A stretch of DNA of 32,000 bases, taken from assembly GCA_002716355.1 (NCBI GenBank), contig PBAU01000002.1, forward strand, positions 60,001 to 92,000, written 5' to 3'. Shown here in pieces: positions 5,037 to 22,348 of this stretch. A model generated the notes under the pieces. That model did not search any database and was not told the DNA's origin. It saw nothing but the letters and a program-made list of their open reading frames with translations. Both the position numbers and the translations under genes were made by a program. Position 1 is the first letter of the stretch, and each line of letters starts with the position of its first letter. Source of the stretch: a bacterium. GTDB lineage: Bacteria > UBP7 > UBA6624.

Positions 5037-6078
5037 AAAAATATTATTTTTGCTGATTGGGTTTTTTGGTTTTTTTGGCTGCTACAAACCAACAATACCA
5101 TGGCAGATAACAGCCTCATCCATTGTTGACACAGGCCAACATGTAAGGGCAGCTGTTAACTGGAAAGGCGGGCCTGATGGAACACCAATCAATATCACTG
5201 TTATTTATGAGTTAAATATTGATGATAATCAAACAAATTGGCAGCCTATAGCTAGACACGATAATTGGAAAAATGTACAAAGTATTGATTTTTCAGAAGA
5301 CGGAAGCTTTGTCGTTTTGGCAGCTGATTCTAAAAATCGAGATATTTGGATTTGGGAAATAGGGAAACTACCGGTAGAGTTCACATCCAATAAAGATATA
5401 GAGGGTGATGTTACCTTGATTCAGGATTCGATTGCTTTTAGAAAAAAAGAAGGCAAGGCCCATAATTTATTTGTCAAATCGTTAAATGGCCTTGATAACA
5501 AAAGGTTAACCAATGGTAGCTCAACACGTTGGAATCTGAAAGCTTCAGAAAGAGAAGAGGGTGTTGTTCTTTTGCATAATGTTAGATCGAGAATGAATAT
5601 AGGTTTGTCTACTGTAGGAATTGATGGTTCTAAGCCACAACGTGTTTTTGATGAGGATGGACCTGAGGTTTCTTTTGATATTGCGGGAAACTATGTTGTT
5701 TTTTCCAATGAAAATAATTGGTTTTTGTGCTCTCCTGAAGCGGGAATGGATTTTTCAAACCCCGTATGTATCAAAAATGACGCCCCATCTGCTTTCGGTT
5801 GGATTGGGGATGTTTTCATAATTAATCAGGATCTTTATGGTGGGATAGTGGCAGATGAATCTTCGCCTAATGGTAATATTTTGTTATATGTTTTTAATAA
5901 TCAGATTTATGAATTTGCTTATGAGAATAATGTAATTAAACATGTGAAATCAGAAGGAGACAAGCTAAGTTTAAGCATCAACAACCCTATGTTTGGTGAT
6001 TTTTTTGCCATCCTTAAAATGGGTGAATTTGAACTTGAAGAACTTCCAGTTATTTACGCACCTGAATCTGATAGTTGA
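5029..6078 (+). CDS. putative lipoprotein, possibly a TolB/PD40-like beta-propeller
   Basis: Signal peptide plus Cys (LLIGFFGFFGC). Repeated beta-strand-rich segments such as SIDFSEDGSFVVLAADSKNRDIWIW. The start overlaps the permease stop by 8 nt (ATGAATAA), so the two genes are probably translationally coupled. Confidence 0.55.
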   Translation: MNKKILFLLIGFFGFFGCYKPTIPWQITASSIVDTGQHVRAAVNWKGGPDGTPINITVIYELNIDDNQTNWQPIARHDNWKNVQSIDFSEDGSFVVLAADSKNRDIWIWEIGKLPVEFTSNKDIEGDVTLIQDSIAFRKKEGKAHNLFVKSLNGLDNKRLTNGSSTRWNLKASEREEGVVLLHNVRSRMNIGLSTVGIDGSKPQRVFDEDGPEVSFDIAGNYVVFSNENNWFLCSPEAGMDFSNPVCIKNDAPSAFGWIGDVFIINQDLYGGIVADESSPNGNILLYVFNNQIYEFAYENNVIKHVKSEGDKLSLSINNPMFGDFFAILKMGEFELEELPVIYAPESDS

Positions 6079-7004
6079 TTTTTCAACGCCAACGTCTTAA
6101 GGTGCTGCCTAAGTATTGGCTTGGGGTAATTAGATAATATTTTTAAACTCCATCCGTCTGTTATCTCCGGTAAATCCATAAGCCATCCATCCAAATCAAG
6201 ATCAAAAGATTTTTTAATTATTTTAAAATTTTCACTTTTTAAACCATGTTGAAAGTAAACCATATAAATATAAGCATCTTTCTCTTTTGAAAGGTAACTC
6301 ACGAAGGCGCCTTTTGTTTCTTCCTCTTCGAGTTTGTGGGTGTTTAAATAAAATGTCCTTTGCCTTGTCGTCCCCAGTATTTCCTCAGGAAGAAAAAAAT
6401 CCTTTTTTGTGGTTTTCGTGGTAATTTTATAATTATTATTATTTTCAGGAGCCACAAATAAATCATCGTTTAACTCTTCTTCATTGATGCTGATCTCAAT
6501 AACATCAGTCAACGAATAACCTTCATTCAGCGTAACCCTCTCCCTTTTCATTGGCAGCTTGTATTCTTTATGTAGCCAGTAGGTTGTCTTGAAGCCTTGC
6601 TCTTCAAAATATGTATTGGAGTTTGAAATTGTCACAATCTCAACATCATTAAAAATGTCCTCTTTTTTTATCCATTGGTCATCATCTGGAGATATTTCTG
6701 CCACTTTGCCCCACACATGCCCAGGCTTTAAAAGGTTAAAGATTTCTTTGTTTCCCGGGAATAGAGCTTTTTCGAAAAAGATGTTTGTATTTATGTCTTG
6801 CAAAACATAGACATTGCCATCTTCCCTAAGTAGAAAAAATTCATTTTTTTTCTCTTCTAAACGAATGGAATTATTTTTTGCAAAGTAACGAAGTTCATTT
6901 TTCTCAATTGTTGTTTTTTGATTTTTTTTGTAAAAGTTTATTTCACCATAAAAGGAATTTTCAACCTGGAACACACTCAGCAGAATCAGGAGAAGCCCAA
7001 TCAT
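6054..7004 (-). CDS. secreted hypothetical protein, possibly a LolA/RseB-like (DUF4367-like) partner of the sigma/anti-sigma pair
   Basis: N-terminal hydrophobic signal (MIGLLLILLSVF). Its start codon directly abuts the anti-sigma stop (TAGATG at 7002-7007). The position matches rseB in rpoE-rseA-rseB operons. The fold assignment rests on position and composition only. Confidence 0.45.
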   Translation of the reverse strand: MIGLLLILLSVFQVENSFYGEINFYKKNQKTTIEKNELRYFAKNNSIRLEEKKNEFFLLREDGNVYVLQDINTNIFFEKALFPGNKEIFNLLKPGHVWGKVAEISPDDDQWIKKEDIFNDVEIVTISNSNTYFEEQGFKTTYWLHKEYKLPMKRERVTLNEGYSLTDVIEISINEEELNDDLFVAPENNNNYKITTKTTKKDFFLPEEILGTTRQRTFYLNTHKLEEEETKGAFVSYLSKEKDAYIYMVYFQHGLKSENFKIIKKSFDLDLDGWLMDLPEITDGWSLKILSNYPKPILRQHLKTLALKNQLSDSGA

Positions 7005-7436
7005 CTATGTTAAAAAGGGATCTTCAAGTAGTAATGTATTGAAGTCGGAAACGCCACCGCTCAGGCCTGTTTGCGAAGCTTGCTCAACTTTGTTTAGACT
7101 GTTGGCCATGTCAGTGTTATTTCGAAAAGTATCACGCACATAACCCCATCCAAAATAGGAAATCGACATTAGGCATATTGCCAATGTGGAAAAAGACACG
7201 CCGGCAAATGAGTTAATGGCCAATTTTCTTTGTTGAATTTTTATTTTTTGATCAACTATACCAAAAATGTCAATTTTGGAATTTTTTGTCATGCCGGACA
7301 ATTCTGGAACTTTTGGCTTCTCGTTTTCAATCAAATCACACAAGATGTCTTTGACCCTTTTGGGCTTTTTCTGGCCCTGGAGACCCTTTCTGACCTCAGC
7401 CAGGAAAGCTTTATTTCTATTTTCTGAAAAAAACAT
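7005..7436 (-). CDS. putative single-pass membrane anti-sigma factor
   Basis: Lies 3 nt downstream of the ECF sigma gene. One predicted TM helix (FAGVSFSTLAICLMSISYFGWGY). There is no zinc-binding HxxxCxxC motif, so the call is mainly positional. Confidence 0.5.
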   Translation of the reverse strand: MFFSENRNKAFLAEVRKGLQGQKKPKRVKDILCDLIENEKPKVPELSGMTKNSKIDIFGIVDQKIKIQQRKLAINSFAGVSFSTLAICLMSISYFGWGYVRDTFRNNTDMANSLNKVEQASQTGLSGGVSDFNTLLLEDPFLT

Positions 7437-16435: not shown

Positions 16436-16444
16436 AACAAGTTT
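16417..16444 (+). promoter_or_regulatory. perfect 9-bp inverted repeat AAACTTGTT-N10-AACAAGTTT at the junction of the PLC-like gene and the PhoU-wHTH gene
   Basis: The left arm at 16417-16425 pairs perfectly with the right arm at 16436-16444, with a 10-nt loop containing the PLC-like stop codon (16433-16435). It could be an operator or an RNA hairpin. No downstream U-tract follows, so it is not a classical terminator. Confidence 0.4.
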
Positions 16445-17411
16445 GAATGCACATAACAAATATACAATTGAGAAGATGATGACAGAGGATCGTACAAACA
16501 AGGTTCATTTAAACGTTATCAGGTTAGGCAAGCTGGTTGTTTTTGCGTTAAAAAAAGCTCTTAAGGGTAGCACCTTTAACATAGATGCTTTTCTTGCAAA
16601 ATGCAGAGCAAGAGAGACTGAAATCAACCTGTTAGAGATGGAAATTGAACAGGATCTCCAGACTTTAATGAGACCAGAGCTGGAAGATAAAGATTGTCGT
16701 CACTTTACAGCGTTGTTGAAAATCAATAATGACCTTGAGAGGATTGGCGATTATGCCATGGCGATAGCTAAATATCTTGTTGATGTTGACATGTCAGAAA
16801 CGGTGAAAATTGAATCCAAATTTAAAAAATTATCAAAAGCATCTATAGAGATGCTTGAAAGATCCGTTAAGGCAATAGAGCTTGAAGATATCAACCTAGC
16901 CAAGCAGGTTATTCGTGATGACGATTATGTTGATAAATTGAACAAGGCAATAATCAAGATTCTTTTAAGCAGTAAAAATCCAGATATGGCTTCGGTTGTT
17001 TCGTTGGTTAATTTGTGTAGAAGATTGGAGAGGACAGCAGATCATGCAACCAACATAGCAGAAGATTTGGTTTTTTGGATAGAGGGTGATGTTTTGAGGC
17101 ATCCCACAAAAAAAAGATCCTTTATGTTTAATGAGATTGAAATATATCCAAACAGCAGAGAGATTAAGATTTCAGAAAAGGTCCATCTTTCTAAAAGTGA
17201 ATGGGAGATATTCATACACCTTATAGAAAGATCTCCAGACGGTGTTTCTAGAGAGGATCTTATGAAAAATGCTTTAGGCTACGACTCTTCTGTTGAAACT
17301 CGAACTATCGATCAACACGTGGTTAGATTGCGAAAAAAACTAGGCCACAAAAAAACACTTTTGAAATCTATAGCTGGATTCGGTTACAAAGTGGTTAATT
17401 CAAAGAATTAA
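16443..17411 (+). CDS. PhoU-domain protein fused to a C-terminal OmpR/PhoB-type winged-helix DNA-binding domain, with no receiver domain
   Basis: Residues about 12-220 align to the downstream canonical PhoU and include both ExxxD metal motifs (NDLERIGDYA, LERTADHATNIAEDLVFW). Residues about 226-318 match the PhoB C-terminal domain (LSKSEWEIFIHLIE, VSREDLM, ETRTIDQHVVRLRKKL, GFGYKV). The track start is a TTG at 16443, and the first ATG is at 16476 (MMTEDR..). Confidence 0.85.
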   Translation: MNAHNKYTIEKMMTEDRTNKVHLNVIRLGKLVVFALKKALKGSTFNIDAFLAKCRARETEINLLEMEIEQDLQTLMRPELEDKDCRHFTALLKINNDLERIGDYAMAIAKYLVDVDMSETVKIESKFKKLSKASIEMLERSVKAIELEDINLAKQVIRDDDYVDKLNKAIIKILLSSKNPDMASVVSLVNLCRRLERTADHATNIAEDLVFWIEGDVLRHPTKKRSFMFNEIEIYPNSREIKISEKVHLSKSEWEIFIHLIERSPDGVSREDLMKNALGYDSSVETRTIDQHVVRLRKKLGHKKTLLKSIAGFGYKVVNSKN

Positions 17412-17499
17412 AACAAATTTGTTACAAGTTTTTAAAAAATCACAAAGAATACTATTTAAGATTTCAACTTAAATCCAAAAAGGAGGATTTTATATAAAA
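17412..17499 (+). promoter_or_regulatory. pstS upstream region with a palindrome, shared sequence words and a strong Shine-Dalgarno
   Basis: Largest intergenic gap in the window. Contains a perfect 12-bp palindrome AACAAATTTGTT (17412-17423). TTGTTACA (17419-17426) and ACAAGTTT (17424-17431) are also present at 16421-16428 and 16437-16444. SD AAGGAGGA at 17480-17487 lies 12 nt before the ATG. Confidence 0.45.
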
Positions 17500-18384
17500 A
17501 TGAAATTTAAATTTTCAAGCTTTTTTATATTGTTAGTTTTAGTAGTTACCAGTTGTGCAAGGCCGCAGGATTCTGAAGGAAATGCCGCAGGAAGTAGTTC
17601 CTCGGGAAGCGAGCAAAGCATACAGGTGACAGGCTCTGACACCATGGTTAACTTAGGTCAAGCATGGGCTGAAGAATATACAAAAACGAACCCCAACGCA
17701 TATATTGCTGTTGGTGGCGGAGGCTCTGGTGTTGGGATCGCTGCCTTGATGAATGGAACTGCTGATCTCGCAAATTCATCCAGAGCAATTAAGGACAAAG
17801 AGATCTCAAAGGCAAACGAACTTGGCTTCGGTATCAAGGAGTATATTGTTGGTTGGGATGGGCTTGCTGTTGTCGTTCACCCAGATAATCCAGTTAACCA
17901 ATTGTCAATTTTGCAAATCGCAGAAATTTTTACTGCCAAAATTACAAACTGGAAAGAGGTTGGTGGTGATGATTTAGAGATTGTTTTGTTGTCACGAGAG
18001 GTAAATAGTGGAACACATGTTTACTTCAAAGAAAATGTCGTTGGATCTTTAGGTAAGGGTACTGAATTCAGCGAAGAGGCGTTATTGATGCCAAGTAGCC
18101 AAGCACTTGCTGATGAGGTAACAAATAATATTGGCGCAATTGGCTATTATGGCATGGGTTATTTGTCACCATCACAAAAGCCAATTGATGTATCTGTTGA
18201 TGGGGTTGTTTTTGTTCCACCAACTATAGAAAATGTTCTTAATAAAACATATCCAATTGCGAGACCCCTACACATGTTTTCAAGAGATAACATTTCTGCA
18301 GCAGCAAAAGCTTATATTGAGTGGATAATGGGAGAGGGGGGCCAGGCTGTTGTTGCAGCACAGGATTTTGTCCCCTTGAGCTGA
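17500..18384 (+). CDS. pstS: phosphate ABC transporter substrate-binding lipoprotein
   Basis: Lipobox (VVTSC). PBP-like-2 phosphate-binding motifs are present: GSDTMVNL, GGGGSGVGIAALMNGTADLANSSR, SREVNSGT. Confidence 0.9.
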   Translation: MKFKFSSFFILLVLVVTSCARPQDSEGNAAGSSSSGSEQSIQVTGSDTMVNLGQAWAEEYTKTNPNAYIAVGGGGSGVGIAALMNGTADLANSSRAIKDKEISKANELGFGIKEYIVGWDGLAVVVHPDNPVNQLSILQIAEIFTAKITNWKEVGGDDLEIVLLSREVNSGTHVYFKENVVGSLGKGTEFSEEALLMPSSQALADEVTNNIGAIGYYGMGYLSPSQKPIDVSVDGVVFVPPTIENVLNKTYPIARPLHMFSRDNISAAAKAYIEWIMGEGGQAVVAAQDFVPLS

Positions 18385-18415: not shown

Positions 18416-19327
18416 GTGAAAAATATAAAATTAAAAAAGCATAAAACAGAGACTTTCAAACAGCCTCTGTCTGAAAAAATAACAGAGGCATGCTTGCGTT
18501 TTGCAGCATGGCTATGCATCTTTTTTATTGCCTGCATTCTTTATTTTTTAGTAAAAGAAAGTGGCGGGGTTTTTTTTAGTGACATTTTTACTATTACAGG
18601 TAAATTTTGGAGACCAATCAGTGAACCTCCAGATTTTGGTGTTTGGGTATTGCTTGCAGGCAGTTTGGCAGTAACGTTAACAGCATCTCTAATCGCAGTG
18701 CCCCTAGGGATTTGTGCAGCTATTTTTATCGGCGAACTGCTGCCACAGAAATTTAGAGAATTTTTGAAAGTTATAGTTGAATTTCTAGCAGCAATACCAA
18801 GTGTTGTTATTGGGTTCTTGGGCATGATTATTCTTGCACCATACATCAAGGAAGCTTTTGACCTAAAAACAGGCTTAACGGCTTTTTCGGCAGCATTGAT
18901 GCTTGCATGGATGGCAATGCCGACAATAGTCAGTTTAACTGAGGATGCTCTCAGAAGTGTACCTGATACTTTAAGAGATGGGGCTCTTGCTCTTGGTGCT
19001 ACCAAATGGCAAATGATCACAAGGGTGCTTTTGCCAACAGCAAAACCAGGCATACTTGCTGCAGCAATGCTTGGTGTTGGAAGGGTGATAGGTGAAACAA
19101 TGGCGGTTTTAATGATTAGTGGTAATTCTGCCAGGATACCAAGTAGCATCATGGAGCCAGTCAGAACTCTCACTGCAACAATTGCTGCAGAAATGGGAGA
19201 AACAGTCAAGGGCGATGAGCATTATCAAGCCCTTTTTGGCTTGGGTGTTGTTTTATTTATTATCACATTGCTAATTAATACTGCAGCAGATAGGTTTATT
19301 AATAAAAAATACACAGAAGAATCATGA
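18416..19327 (+). CDS. pstC: phosphate ABC transporter permease
   Basis: Polytopic protein with an EAA-like loop (SLTEDALRSVPDTLRDGALALGATKWQ). GTG start. Gene order is pstS-C-A-B. Confidence 0.9.
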   Translation: MKNIKLKKHKTETFKQPLSEKITEACLRFAAWLCIFFIACILYFLVKESGGVFFSDIFTITGKFWRPISEPPDFGVWVLLAGSLAVTLTASLIAVPLGICAAIFIGELLPQKFREFLKVIVEFLAAIPSVVIGFLGMIILAPYIKEAFDLKTGLTAFSAALMLAWMAMPTIVSLTEDALRSVPDTLRDGALALGATKWQMITRVLLPTAKPGILAAAMLGVGRVIGETMAVLMISGNSARIPSSIMEPVRTLTATIAAEMGETVKGDEHYQALFGLGVVLFIITLLINTAADRFINKKYTEES

Positions 19328-20184
19328 ACTTTAAAAAACAAAATCCAATCAACCAGCAAAAAAGGGCCACTTTTGGCTTGGGGCTTATAACAGCCATTGT
19401 GGTTATTCCGGTTTTATTGATACTAGGTGTTGTTTTTGTTAAGGGTATTTCAGTTATAGATTGGAACTTCCTGACCACTGAACCCACCAATGGTTTAAGA
19501 GAGGGCGGGGTTTTCCCGGCCATAGTTGGAACATTGATCCTGGTTGTTGGGGCCGTGGTTTGGAGTGTCCCTTTTGGTGTGGCTACTGCAATTTATCTTG
19601 TTGAATATTCTCCAAGAAGCCGAGCAGCTAACTTGGTTAGGTTAGCAATCTTAAATTTAGCAGGAGTCCCCAGTGTTGTTTACGGGTTGTTTGGCTTGGG
19701 GGTGTTTGTCATAGCTTTAAAATTTGGCGCAAGCATTTTAGCGGGAACTTTAACCCTTGCTCTGATGGGTTTGCCAGTAATAGTCACATCAACTGCAGAA
19801 GCGTTAAAAGCTGTTCCTGATAGATTCAGAGAAGCAAGCTTGGCATTGGGTGCTAGCAAATGGCAAACAACTAGGCATGTTGTTCTTCCAAACTCCATAC
19901 AGGGAATTTTGACCGGAATAATTTTAGAAATTAGTCGTGCTGGCGGAGAGACTGCACCAATTTTGTTCACTGTAGCAGCTTTTTATTTACCAAGATTGCC
20001 ACAAAGTATCTTTGATCAGGTCATGGCGCTTCCAATGCATCTTTTTGCAATCTCAACACAGGTGCCTAACATAGGCTTGGATGTGAGATATGCAGTTGCC
20101 TTAACGTTGTTGTTTTTAGTTTTAGGCATCAATGCAGTTGCAATTTCCATAAGAGCAAAAATTAGGAAAAACAGAATATGGTAA
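19324..20184 (+). CDS. pstA: phosphate ABC transporter permease
   Basis: Polytopic protein with an EAA-like loop (STAEALKAVPDRFREASLALGASKWQ). ATGA overlap with pstC. Confidence 0.9.
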   Translation: MNFKKQNPINQQKRATFGLGLITAIVVIPVLLILGVVFVKGISVIDWNFLTTEPTNGLREGGVFPAIVGTLILVVGAVVWSVPFGVATAIYLVEYSPRSRAANLVRLAILNLAGVPSVVYGLFGLGVFVIALKFGASILAGTLTLALMGLPVIVTSTAEALKAVPDRFREASLALGASKWQTTRHVVLPNSIQGILTGIILEISRAGGETAPILFTVAAFYLPRLPQSIFDQVMALPMHLFAISTQVPNIGLDVRYAVALTLLFLVLGINAVAISIRAKIRKNRIW

Positions 20185-20927
20185 AAGAAATCATTATTAA
20201 ATCTTTGTCGGTTTCATATGGAAACAAACAGGCAATAAGAAATTTGTCTTTATCGGTTGAAAAAAATGAAATATTAGGAATCATTGGTCCTACTACTTCA
20301 GGAAAAACAACCTTACTTACAGTTTTAAACAGAATGATCGACACAATACCGTCAGTTGCGATTTCCGGCAATGTTTCCATGGGTGATATTGATGTTTTGA
20401 CAACACCAAACATCCATAGTCTCAGGAGGTCTGTTGGGATGATTTTTGCCCTTCCGGTCGCTTTGCCCATGACTATTAGGGAAAATGTTGAATATGGCCC
20501 AAAGATGGCTGGAGAGGCAAAAGGAGAGTTGGAGACAAGGGTTAAAGAAAGTCTTGTGCAGGCTGGATTATGGGATGAGGTGCACGACAGGTTGGACACC
20601 CCGGCATTAAAGCTTTCAGGCGGCCAGCAACAAAGGCTTTGCATCGCAAGGGCTTTAGCATTAAAGCCAAAGGTTTTATTGCTTGATGAGCCTTGTTCGG
20701 GGCTTGATCCAATCTCAACATCCAGAATAGAGGATACACTGAGTCAATTAAAAAATGACATGACTATCATCTTGGTCACAAACAACCCCCATCAAGCTGC
20801 TCGTGTTGCTCATCGAACAGCTTTTATGCTTAAGGGCGAGCTTATCGAGCTTGCTGACACAGACACACTGTTCACAAATCCTGCAGACAATAGAACAAAA
20901 GAATACATTGAGGGTAAATTTGGATAA
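20178..20927 (+). CDS. pstB: phosphate ABC transporter ATP-binding subunit, divergent paralogue lacking the Q-loop Gln and H-loop His
   Basis: Aligns to E. coli PstB along its full length. Walker A GPTTSGKT, signature LSGGQQQRL and Walker B LLLDEP are present. The Q-loop reads VGMIFALP (Ala codon at 20448-20450 where Gln is expected). The H-loop reads LVTNN (Asn codon at 20781-20783 where His is expected). Confidence 0.9.
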   Translation: MVKEIIIKSLSVSYGNKQAIRNLSLSVEKNEILGIIGPTTSGKTTLLTVLNRMIDTIPSVAISGNVSMGDIDVLTTPNIHSLRRSVGMIFALPVALPMTIRENVEYGPKMAGEAKGELETRVKESLVQAGLWDEVHDRLDTPALKLSGGQQQRLCIARALALKPKVLLLDEPCSGLDPISTSRIEDTLSQLKNDMTIILVTNNPHQAARVAHRTAFMLKGELIELADTDTLFTNPADNRTKEYIEGKFG

Positions 20928-21691
20928 TGGCAAAAACTCTAATTAAATCTGAAAAATTCAATTTGTGGTATGGTGACTTTCAAGCTTTAATTGATATAGA
21001 TCTCGACATACCAGAAAATCAAGTTACAGCTGTTGTGGGTCCTTCAGGATGCGGAAAAAGCACTTTTGTTCGTTGTATCAACAGGCTAAACGATCAAATA
21101 AACACAGTTAGCACCAAGGGTTCTATTTTTATTGATGGGACAGACATTTACCAATATACGGCTGATGAGGTTGTTGGGCTTAGGCGATCTGTCGGGATGG
21201 TTTTTCAGAGACCCAACCCCTTTCCGCTTTCTGTTTTTGAAAACGTTGCTTTTGGCTTAAAGACAAACCCCATGGTTCCTGATCATCAAACCATAAAAAA
21301 GGAAGTCAATAAAGCGCTGCAAGCGGTAGGTTTGCTTGAGGACCTAGACGGTAACCTTGCGAGACCAGGAACCAGTCTTTCCCTGGAACAGCAGCAAAGA
21401 TTATGTATTGCAAGATGCCTGCCAACAAGGCCCAAAATATTGCTTATGGACGAACCTTGTTCAGCATTGGATCCAAGCGATACCGATAAGGTAGAGGAGC
21501 TCATAAGGGAATTAAGGAAAGACTATACCGTTGTGATAGTGACCCACAACCTACAACAAGCTGGCAGAATTTCTGATCAATCTGTATTATTCCATTTGGG
21601 CAAAATTATTGAAGCAGCACCAACAGCAGATTTCTTCCAGAACCCGAAAGAAAAAAGAACAAGAGACTTTATTACAGGTCGTTATGGTTAG
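20927..21691 (+). CDS. pstB: phosphate ABC transporter ATP-binding subunit, catalytic motifs canonical but signature motif degenerate (LSLEQ)
   Basis: Walker A GPSGCGKS, Q-loop VGMVFQRPNPFP, Walker B LLMDEP and H-loop IVTHN are all canonical. The signature is LSLEQQQRL (21377-21391) instead of LSGGQ. The C-terminus DFITGRYG matches the PstB consensus. Confidence 0.9.
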   Translation: MAKTLIKSEKFNLWYGDFQALIDIDLDIPENQVTAVVGPSGCGKSTFVRCINRLNDQINTVSTKGSIFIDGTDIYQYTADEVVGLRRSVGMVFQRPNPFPLSVFENVAFGLKTNPMVPDHQTIKKEVNKALQAVGLLEDLDGNLARPGTSLSLEQQQRLCIARCLPTRPKILLMDEPCSALDPSDTDKVEELIRELRKDYTVVIVTHNLQQAGRISDQSVLFHLGKIIEAAPTADFFQNPKEKRTRDFITGRYG

Positions 21692-21700
21692 GAGTTAAAT

Positions 21701-22348
21701 ATGACTAAAAGATTAACAAAACTTATTGATAAAATCAAAGTAAAAACCTTGGCAATGGCTCAAGATGTTTGCAAATCAATGGATGATGCAATGGAGGCAA
21801 TTTTAAATTCTAGCGATGATAAATATCAAGCAATGAAACAACGAGAAGATAATATTGATTCGCTAGAAGTTGAGATCGAAGAATCCATACTTGGCACCAT
21901 TGCTGTCCATCAACCTGTTGCAGATGATTTAAGAATTCTTGCAGCAATGTTGAAGATTACAAATGACTTAGAAAGAATTGGTGATTATGCGATCAAAATT
22001 GCTCAAAGGGGCAAGGATATTGACGCCAACTTGATCAAGAGCATCAAAGCTCCTTTGTCTAAATTGGGAACATCTTCAATCCAGATGATTAAAGATGCAG
22101 TACAGGCTTTAGACGCAGGAGATGCAGATTTAGCCCAGAAGGTTAGAGATGCTGATGACCAGGTGGATGAGCTTAACAAATCCCTCATAAAGGAATTATC
22201 CAAAATCGATGATGATGACTTTGAGTCCTTGGTCGCACTGGTTTCAATATCCAGAAGATTCGAAAGAGCTGCTGATCATGCAACAAACATAGCAGAAGAT
22301 GTTTTGTTCTGGCTTGAAGGCAGGATATTCAGACACGGTGAAACCTAA
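21701..22348 (+). CDS. phoU: phosphate signalling complex protein PhoU
   Basis: 215 aa with two PhoU repeats (NDLERIGDYAIKIA and FERAADHATNIAEDVLFW). SD AGGAG lies upstream. It occupies the canonical position after pstB. Confidence 0.92.
   Translation: MTKRLTKLIDKIKVKTLAMAQDVCKSMDDAMEAILNSSDDKYQAMKQREDNIDSLEVEIEESILGTIAVHQPVADDLRILAAMLKITNDLERIGDYAIKIAQRGKDIDANLIKSIKAPLSKLGTSSIQMIKDAVQALDAGDADLAQKVRDADDQVDELNKSLIKELSKIDDDDFESLVALVSISRRFERAADHATNIAEDVLFWLEGRIFRHGET

Follow-up and report, generated by a model that had tools for sequence, protein, structure and literature searches.

The window analysed here is a stretch of 32,000 nucleotides (nt) of contig PBAU01000002.1 (positions 60,001 to 92,000, forward strand; assembly GCA_002716355.1), which comes from a bacterium of the lineage UBP7; UBA6624. 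It carries a compact, contiguous pst operon on the + strand, in which two tandem genes, pstB1 and pstB2, encode nucleotide-binding domains (NBDs) of the ATP-binding cassette (ABC) type. The motifs of these two proteins depart from the PstB consensus in complementary ways, and it is this asymmetry that concerns us. The operon is made up of the following genes:

16443..17411, + strand: PhoU-domain protein with a C-terminal OmpR/PhoB-type winged-helix domain (Pfam PhoU, in two stretches, and Trans_reg_C)
17500..18384, + strand: pstS, phosphate-binding protein (TIGR02136, 236 bits, over cut-off)
18416..19327, + strand: pstC, permease (TIGR02138, 284.5 bits, over cut-off)
19324..20184, + strand: pstA, permease (TIGR00974, 280.3 bits, over cut-off)
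20178..20927, + strand: pstB1, NBD of 249 amino acids (open reading frame, TIGR00972 best match, phmmer alignment, AlphaFold2 (AF2) model)
20927..21691, + strand: pstB2, NBD of 254 amino acids (open reading frame, TIGR00972 best match, AF2 model)
21701..22348, + strand: phoU, canonical PhoU with a single domain pair (TIGR02135, 162.4 bits, over cut-off)

The setting is that of a pstS-pstC-pstA-pstB-phoU operon, with the neighbours of the two NBD genes over their model cut-offs, on the same strand, and joined by short or overlapping junctions. The 3' end of pstA overlaps the start of pstB1 by 7 nt (ATGGTAA), the stop codon of pstB1 overlaps the start codon of pstB2 by 1 nt (TAATG), and phoU starts 9 nt past pstB2 with a GGAG; the overlapping stop and start codons indicate that pstA, pstB1 and pstB2 are translationally coupled. 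Each NBD is a polypeptide of its own, PstC and PstA are permease subunits of the type I importer kind, and PstS serves as the binding protein, an arrangement distinct from that of exporters, in which the NBD is fused to a type IV or type V transmembrane domain (TMD). TIGR00972, the PstB equivalog model, is the best full-length match for both proteins, with PstB1 (306.8 bits) and PstB2 (332.8 bits) under its cut-off of 343.2. We attribute the lowered scores to the motif changes described below, and both proteins are still close relatives of PstB. There is no dedicated NCBIfam model that separates PstB1 and PstB2 as subfamilies, and annotation pipelines will give both subunits generic labels, as they score slightly under the equivalog cut-off. 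Beyond these two, the window contains no further PstB-like gene.

The motifs that set the two proteins apart are these:

20286..20309, + strand: PstB1 Walker A, GPTTSGKT (retains Lys and Thr; Thr here, and Asn in most relatives, stand in for the inner Gly typical of ABC proteins)
20448..20450, + strand: Ala91 of PstB1, at the Gln position of the Q-loop FALP (Ala in 92% of PstB1-type sequences, Gln in 100% of canonical ones)
20613..20627, + strand: PstB1 signature LSGGQ, consensus, assigned to the catalytic site
20676..20693, + strand: PstB1 Walker B, LLLDEP, with the catalytic Glu kept
20697..20708, + strand: PstB1 D-loop, SGLD (SALD in canonical PstB)
20781..20783, + strand: Asn202 of PstB1, at the His position of the H-loop VTNN (Asn in 95% of PstB1-type sequences)
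21377..21391, + strand: PstB2 degenerate signature LSLEQ, Gly-Gly changed to Leu-Glu, predicted to face the P-loop of PstB1

The A-loop residue of PstB1 is Tyr14. The remaining motifs of PstB2 are all consensus: Walker A GPSGCGKS, Q-loop FQRP, Walker B LLMDEP, D-loop SALD and H-loop VTHN. Neither protein holds a complete consensus set within one subunit, whereas each of 76 canonical PstBs does.

A sequence-only reading of this stretch had already placed Ala at the Q-loop and Asn at the H-loop of PstB1, beside an intact Walker B Glu and a perfect LSGGQ, and had described PstB2 as canonical except for LSLEQ; motif coordinates and alignment agree with all of this. In a phmmer alignment with Escherichia coli PstB (9k3x/9k3s), PstB1 aligns without gaps over the Q-loop and H-loop, Ala lies opposite Gln and Asn opposite His, and no Gln or His is found at equivalent positions. 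The AF2 model of PstB1 is confident, with a mean predicted local distance difference test (pLDDT) score of 93.2. Its best Foldseek matches are the E. coli PstB chains 9k3x_C and 9k3s_C, so that the fold is that of PstB, and it superposes on 9k3x_C with a template modelling (TM) score of 0.94 and a root-mean-square deviation of 1.2 A; the PstB2 model has a pLDDT of 94.2. The gap-free alignment and the confident superposition together mean that an alternative Gln or His cannot be recovered by re-registration. Nor are the substitutions sequencing noise, because Gln to Ala and Gly to Leu each require at least two base changes and the same residues recur in relatives at 96-54% identity. The same reading's statement that PstB1 keeps Walker A stands only in part: the motif retains Lys and Thr and matches the general P-loop consensus GxxxxGK[ST], but it does not match the ABC-typical GPSGCGKS, as the inner Gly is replaced. 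The Cys to Ser and Ser to Thr changes within this Walker A are also family-specific and belong to the same composite site as the other changes of PstB1.

In a head-to-tail NBD dimer each ATP is sandwiched between one NBD's Walker A/B side and its partner's signature, where the exposed backbone of the second signature glycine hydrogen-bonds the gamma-phosphate (PMC4178940). When the motif changes of PstB1 and PstB2 are mapped onto this arrangement, they fall into one composite site, apart from the D-loop and a few minor positions, and the other site is consensus. This partition had been proposed from the sequence, and an unbiased class-specific column scan, made with no prior knowledge of the motifs, arrives at it as well. 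The scan covered 77 PstB1-type, 98 PstB2-type and 75 canonical PstB sequences and looked for columns in which canonical PstB holds one conserved residue and one class holds another, likewise conserved. The columns specific to PstB1 were in Walker A (G to N, C to S, S to T), the Q-loop (Q to A, K to L, F to L), the H-loop (H to N, Q to K) and the D-loop (A to G), with two others; those specific to PstB2 were both signature glycines (G to L, G to E) and four minor positions.

The pattern is shared well beyond this genome. We examined the best 120 database homologues of each protein, and the PstB1 pattern is common to 120 of 120, down to 54% identity and across many phyla, with metagenome-assembled genome (MAG) labels that include Firestonebacteria, Deltaproteobacteria, Armatimonadota, Actinobacteria, Chlamydiota and Eisenbacteria. 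In these homologues Walker A is mostly GP[AS]NSGK[ST], Q-loop Gln occurs in none and Ala in nearly all (mostly as [FY]A[LM]P), and LSGGQ, DEP, SGLD and an H-loop of the form VTN[NLIH] are present. About 105 of the best 120 homologues of PstB2 have L[ST]LEQ or a near variant (LSGEQ, LSNEE) along with otherwise consensus motifs. The residues expected to bind nucleotide are kept in PstB1-type sequences (A-loop Phe or Tyr in 83/83, Walker A Lys in 81/83, Walker B Asp-Glu in 81/83). The roughly 76 canonical PstBs all have xSGGQ and show none of the changes of either class. In a search of representatives at 50% identity, the PstB1 type makes up about ten clusters among the top 150, a figure that bounds its diversity and not its abundance. 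The asymmetric PstB pair is thus a large conserved family over many phyla. Ten further PstB-related representatives (P0427, P0428, P0440, P0455, P0464, P0482, P0499, P0507, P0510, P0514) have other non-consensus signatures (LSIGQ, LSVGQ, LSAGQ, LTADA, LTRGQ), some with altered H-loops, and additional independent asymmetric PstB variants may exist.

The sequence-only reading had called for a survey of how often the changes co-occur. The co-occurrence is complete. The counts that follow refer to the matches listed in each search. Genome contigs, surveyed with the pattern GGQQQRLC, which also matches canonical PstB, gave 10 PstB1-clade loci and about 70 canonical controls. A paralogue with a degenerate signature (LSLEQ, LSLEA, LSGEQ, LSLGQ, LTEEQ or LSAEQ) lies immediately downstream of the PstB1-type gene in all seven complete loci, while the approximately 70 single canonical PstB loci have xSGGQ in every case and a degenerate signature in none. 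The reverse test scanned metagenome contigs with a DNA pattern for the PstB2 signature region only, blind to the partner, and found a PstB2-type open reading frame in 118 loci. At least 700 nt of upstream sequence were available in 86 of these, and in 86/86 the next gene upstream, on the same strand, is of the PstB1 type; its product lacks the Q-loop Gln and the H-loop His in each case and has xSGGQ in each case. The remaining 32 loci are incomplete upstream, and no unpaired gene was found. The order pstS-C-A-B1-B2-phoU also occurs in a Firestonebacteria MAG and in L081, the relative of the window (85-90% identical), and phoU adjoins pstB2 in essentially all loci. In one locus, L196, about 1.3 kb separate pstB1 and pstB2 (~5850 to 7118, minus-strand frame), whereas the genes abut or overlap in all the others. 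The conserved asymmetry and the co-occurrence of the subunits are what one finds in systems with one consensus and one degenerate site.

The identity of the signature residue and that of the H-loop residue also covary, with Asn at the H-loop in 93/93 pairs whose signature has Glu, and His kept in both pairs with LSLGQ (L006 and L033). These two loci, from an Anaerolineae MAG and a Syntrophobacteraceae MAG respectively, encode a PstB1 type without the Q-loop Gln that retains the H-loop His (VPHN, VPHS) and has GPAAGGKT as Walker A, and the partner signature has lost the first Gly alone. Such intermediates may mark a stepwise route to full degeneracy. They group, in 69 of 100 bootstraps, with the forms at L016 (2632-3445) and L024 (1893-2655), two Bacillota MAG loci with the order pstC-pstA-single PstB1-clade gene-phoU and no second pstB in the locus. 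In the NBD of these loci the Walker A Lys is replaced by Ile (GPAxSGIT) and the Walker B Glu by Arg (LLDRP), the Q-loop is FDVP and the H-loop APH[NT]; judged by these motifs, it looks like a Pst system whose sole nearby NBD would be unable to bind or hydrolyse ATP.

Several loci (L003, L090, L109, L139, L181, L194, L195) have a full canonical pstSCAB-phoU operon, with a single consensus PstB, adjoining a pstSCA-B1-B2-phoU operon. The PstS, PstC and PstA of the two-NBD operon in these loci are far closer to those of the window than the proteins of the canonical neighbour are, which implies that the whole pstSCA-B1-B2-phoU operon is a Pst lineage of its own, present alongside the standard one.

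The PstB1 type forms one clade (90/100 bootstraps, 72/100 with the motif columns masked, 99/100 in a second sample), whereas the PstB2 type is separated from canonical PstB as a monophyletic group in only 17/100 bootstraps, so that only the PstB1 type is a clear clade. A single PstB1 clade implies that the many loci show the long-term maintenance of one ancient invention and not repeated origins. Both genes are under strong purifying selection: relative to L081, dN/dS is 0.076 for pstB1 and 0.025 for pstB2, resembling pstS, pstC, pstA and phoU. These values bear on the idea that PstB1 is a decaying duplicate, or an artefact of assembly or sequencing, with which the slightly low equivalog scores of both proteins would agree. 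We reject it on the grounds of conservation and selection, as the same residues recur on hundreds of independent contigs from many phyla, the frames are intact and the fold predictions are confident.

We propose, with a probability of roughly 0.7, that PstB1 and PstB2 form an obligate heterodimer in which one site is catalytic and the other binds nucleotide but is non-catalytic or very slow. The two proteins would be the two different nucleotide-binding subunits of a single importer, PstS-PstC-PstA-PstB1-PstB2, paired head to tail. To the catalytic site PstB2 would contribute its Walker A, Q-loop Gln, Walker B Asp-Glu and H-loop His, and PstB1 its LSGGQ; hydrolysis there would drive transport. 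In the degenerate site, the Walker A, Walker B, Q-loop Ala and H-loop Asn of PstB1 would meet the LSLEQ of PstB2. This site keeps the A-loop aromatic residue, the Walker A Lys and Thr, and the Walker B Asp, so that nucleotide binding is probably retained, and it lacks three elements for fast hydrolysis and ATP-dependent closure, namely the Q-loop Gln, the H-loop His and the second signature glycine. The H-loop His is generally essential for hydrolysis, as mutants of HlyB and MalK show. Such a site would be structural or allosteric, and the pump would use approximately one ATP per cycle. The Walker A position that has turned to Asn or Thr is the one we take to be equivalent to Gly13 of Ras, presumably pointing to the gamma-phosphate and the partner side; its change may fit co-adaptation with LSLEQ.

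We infer heterodimerisation from the complementarity of the motifs, the adjacency of the genes and the overlap of their codons, and we read nucleotide binding and the loss of hydrolysis at the degenerate site from the residues kept and lost. A homodimer of PstB2 would have LSLEQ in both of its sites and a homodimer of PstB1 would lack Gln and His in both, and hence a consensus site can arise in the heterodimer alone. It has some precedent, nevertheless, that PstB2 homodimers power transport while PstB1 is accessory or regulatory, or that each protein forms its own homodimer: in Enterococcus faecalis pstB2 is required, and pstB1 is accessory and replaceable by excess PstB2 (PMC12096839). The E. 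faecalis paralogues are both canonical in their motifs, which makes them a different case, and homodimers would not account for motifs that complement each other, for adjacent genes with overlapping codons or for 100% co-occurrence. We regard this arrangement as very improbable.

The main caveat to the proposed heterodimer concerns the silence of its degenerate site, and several points weigh against the proposal. The catalytic Walker B Glu, usually lost in classical degenerate sites (TM287/288, TAP1, CFTR NBD1, Pdr5), is conserved in PstB1, so that slow hydrolysis is possible. The replacement residues are themselves strongly conserved (Ala, Asn, the Walker A Asn and the Lys after the H-loop) and could support an alternative chemistry. 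The precedents for a signature Glu diverge, in that ATP is stably bound in Pdr5 and repelled in CFTR G551E. Lastly, judging from the single PstB1 clade, the covariation stems largely from one ancestral event, and the loci attest to maintenance and not to independent origins.

One could therefore suppose that both composite sites hydrolyse ATP, and that Ala, Asn, Leu-Glu, the Asn or Thr of Walker A and the Lys that follows the H-loop make up a co-adapted form of catalysis that is perhaps slower or differently regulated. The Walker A Lys, Walker B Asp and catalytic Glu kept in 81/83 PstB1-type sequences are what this would predict, the replacement residues are near-invariant, as expected for a functional constellation, and the covariation of signature Glu with H-loop Asn described above fits it too. 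Against this, few residues of ABC proteins tolerate replacement as poorly as the H-loop His and both signature glycines, the HlyB and MalK mutants again being the examples, and canonical PstBs show none of these changes. A similar signature, LNVEQ, sits in Pdr5's non-catalytic site, and the same Gly to Glu change cripples site 2 of CFTR (PMC4178940). We consider two active sites unlikely, though with a real chance of being correct.

A different elaboration, which is a variant of the heterodimer that we favour, makes the degenerate site a regulatory sensor, in which the signature Glu replaces or competes with the gamma-phosphate, the ligand is ADP, inorganic phosphate (Pi), pyrophosphate or Mg-free ATP, for example, and import is gated by energy or phosphate status. 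The signature Glu would pair with the H-loop Asn and the Walker A Asn, closing the site without a gamma-phosphate. Alternatively, the site might serve as a regulatory latch that depends on ADP or on protein-protein contact. The Glu puts a negative charge where the gamma-phosphate meets the signature, in a site whose binding residues are kept; Pst is moreover feedback-controlled through PhoU, encoded beside pstB2 in essentially all loci, and the several genomes with a canonical operon beside the heterodimeric one suggest different roles for the two. The argument is purely inferential, however, no extra domain is present, and other degenerate ABC sites have been explained without a new ligand, so that we hold the sensor to be doubtful. 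The broader proposition that this is the first dedicated type I (binding-protein-dependent) importer family with an obligate NBD heterodimer and a non-catalytic site acting as a sensor of nucleotide or phosphate status is likewise tentative and, on our estimate, unlikely.

The heterodimer with one degenerate site can be compared with several known systems. The heterodimeric ABC exporters (TM287/288, TmrAB, BmrCD, TAP1/2, CFTR, MRP1) resemble PstB1/PstB2 in having two different NBDs, with the deviations in a single composite site and the other site consensus, and in them one ATP hydrolysed per cycle is expected (PMC3971661, PMC7756269). They are type IV proteins with NBDs fused to TMDs, whereas the Pst pair serves a type I binding-protein-dependent importer with separate NBDs. 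They also usually lose the catalytic Walker B Glu; PstB1 keeps it, and the changes lie instead in its Q-loop Gln, H-loop His and inner Walker A Gly and in the signature glycines of its partner. The likeness to TM287/288, TAP1/2 and CFTR drawn by the sequence-only reading consequently survives as a pattern of covariation, but the term non-hydrolytic is less certain here than it is there. PstB1 and PstB2 are diverged members of the PstB family, predicted to function like a degenerate-site heterodimer, and not members of those exporter families.

The signature itself has a likeness in the deviant nucleotide-binding site 1 of the fungal PDR transporters Pdr5 and Cdr1, where the partner signature is also L-x-[VL]-E-Q (LNVEQ against LSLEQ) and the H-loop His is also replaced. 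In Pdr5 the deviant site holds ATP without Mg and without hydrolysis throughout the cycle, and transport breaks down if this site is turned into a catalytic one. Pdr5, a eukaryotic full-size type V exporter, has also lost the Lys of Walker A and the Glu of Walker B, and the resemblance of its signature to that of PstB2 must be convergent. In CFTR, the mutations G551D and G551E place an acidic residue at the second LSGGQ glycine, which repels the ATP gamma-phosphate and prevents productive closure or dimerisation at that site (PMC4178940). That change is pathogenic and lies in the catalytic site, while the Glu of PstB2 is fixed and conserved and lies in a site that is already non-consensus.

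Among importers, the tandem pstB genes of Firmicutes (pstB1/pstB2 of E. faecalis, pstBA/pstBB of Bacillus subtilis) are likewise two adjacent paralogues in a pstSCA-BB-phoU operon; that tandem pstB genes were already known had been noted from the sequence, rightly so. Genetics assigns non-equivalent roles to the E. faecalis proteins, which have identical canonical motifs, and the same work states that tandem pstB paralogues had not been studied before (Healy et al. 2025, PMC12096839). For the B. subtilis complex, a heterodimer was the premise of AF2 modelling (PMC11466899). A degenerate site is not reported for the Firmicutes pair, whereas here both PstB1 and PstB2 deviate. E. coli PstSCAB (9k3s, 9k3x and 9k3y, by cryo-electron microscopy) has the same operon components and NBD fold, with each PstB seated on a coupling helix, that of PstA or that of PstC; its PstB is a homodimer with two consensus sites that each bind ATP, in contrast to the two different PstBs of the window. 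One degenerate ATP site out of two is also known in the bacterial CUT2-type sugar and nucleoside importers RbsA and NupO (PMC11466899), but these are of a different transporter class, a single polypeptide holds both of their NBDs, and they have lost the Walker A Lys and Walker B residues. Reviews describe degenerate sites as frequent in exporters (PMC3971661, PMC7756269). In the searchable literature, which leaves out most subscription journals and whose silence is not proof, degenerate sites of importers are mentioned for fused-NBD systems only (RbsA, NupO), LSLEQ was not found in an ABC context, and neither a PstB1/PstB2-type family nor any Pst importer with a dedicated degenerate site was found described, in keeping with what the sequence-only reading had supposed.

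The first gene of the operon is unusual in its own right. The protein encoded at 16443-17411, directly upstream of pstS, joins a PhoU domain pair (NCBIfam phoU_full at residues 18-216) to an OmpR/PhoB-type winged helix (the C-terminal part of PhoB at 222-316), with no receiver domain. The best 120 matches from a collection of 5.8 billion proteins include this architecture in 4 clusters (97, 74, 73 and 35% identity), the rest being plain PhoU, and its close homologues bear source tags of Tara (marine). It evolves faster than any other gene of the operon, with 72% identity to the relative L081, and it is absent from about 200 other pst loci that were fetched. A link between the fusion and the heterodimeric ATPase was considered and rejected, as the fusion is confined to the window's own lineage. 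By its domains it is a putative regulator of the operon, perhaps of a one-component Pho type, that would link Pst/PhoU status directly to transcription. Upstream of pstS in L081 (2505-2530) there is a direct repeat, TTTTACAAC-TT-TTTTACAAC, with an 11-bp periodicity, which resembles a Pho-box-type site for an OmpR-family protein. At the matching place in the window (17420-17450) there is one clear TTACAAG copy alone. The other neighbours in the window are ordinary chromosomal genes, namely hutU, hutI, an amino-acid transporter, gamma-glutamyltransferase and genes of mannoside catabolism.

Degenerate ATP sites have been studied almost only in exporters, and their role is debated, with a hinge, an allosteric timer and energy saving among the proposals. 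A degenerate site that is strongly conserved in a simple importer of five genes would offer a clean model in bacteria, one in which the subunits concerned are separate and soluble, for which a homodimeric counterpart has been solved (E. coli PstSCAB), and of which some organisms carry both versions side by side. Current annotation does not split the two subfamilies, and dedicated models would be easy to build. The family in question extends over largely uncultivated phyla (Planctomycetota, Omnitrophota, Desulfobacterota, Chloroflexota, Firestonebacteria, WOR-1, Chlamydiota and others), often beside a canonical Pst operon. If its degenerate site were indeed a sensor, phosphate uptake would cost one ATP per cycle and import would be gated by cellular energy or Pi. 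More generally, the asymmetry of PstB1 and PstB2 bears on how PhoU communicates with PstB and on how much ATP is paid per phosphate, which is relevant to microbes limited by energy or by phosphate.

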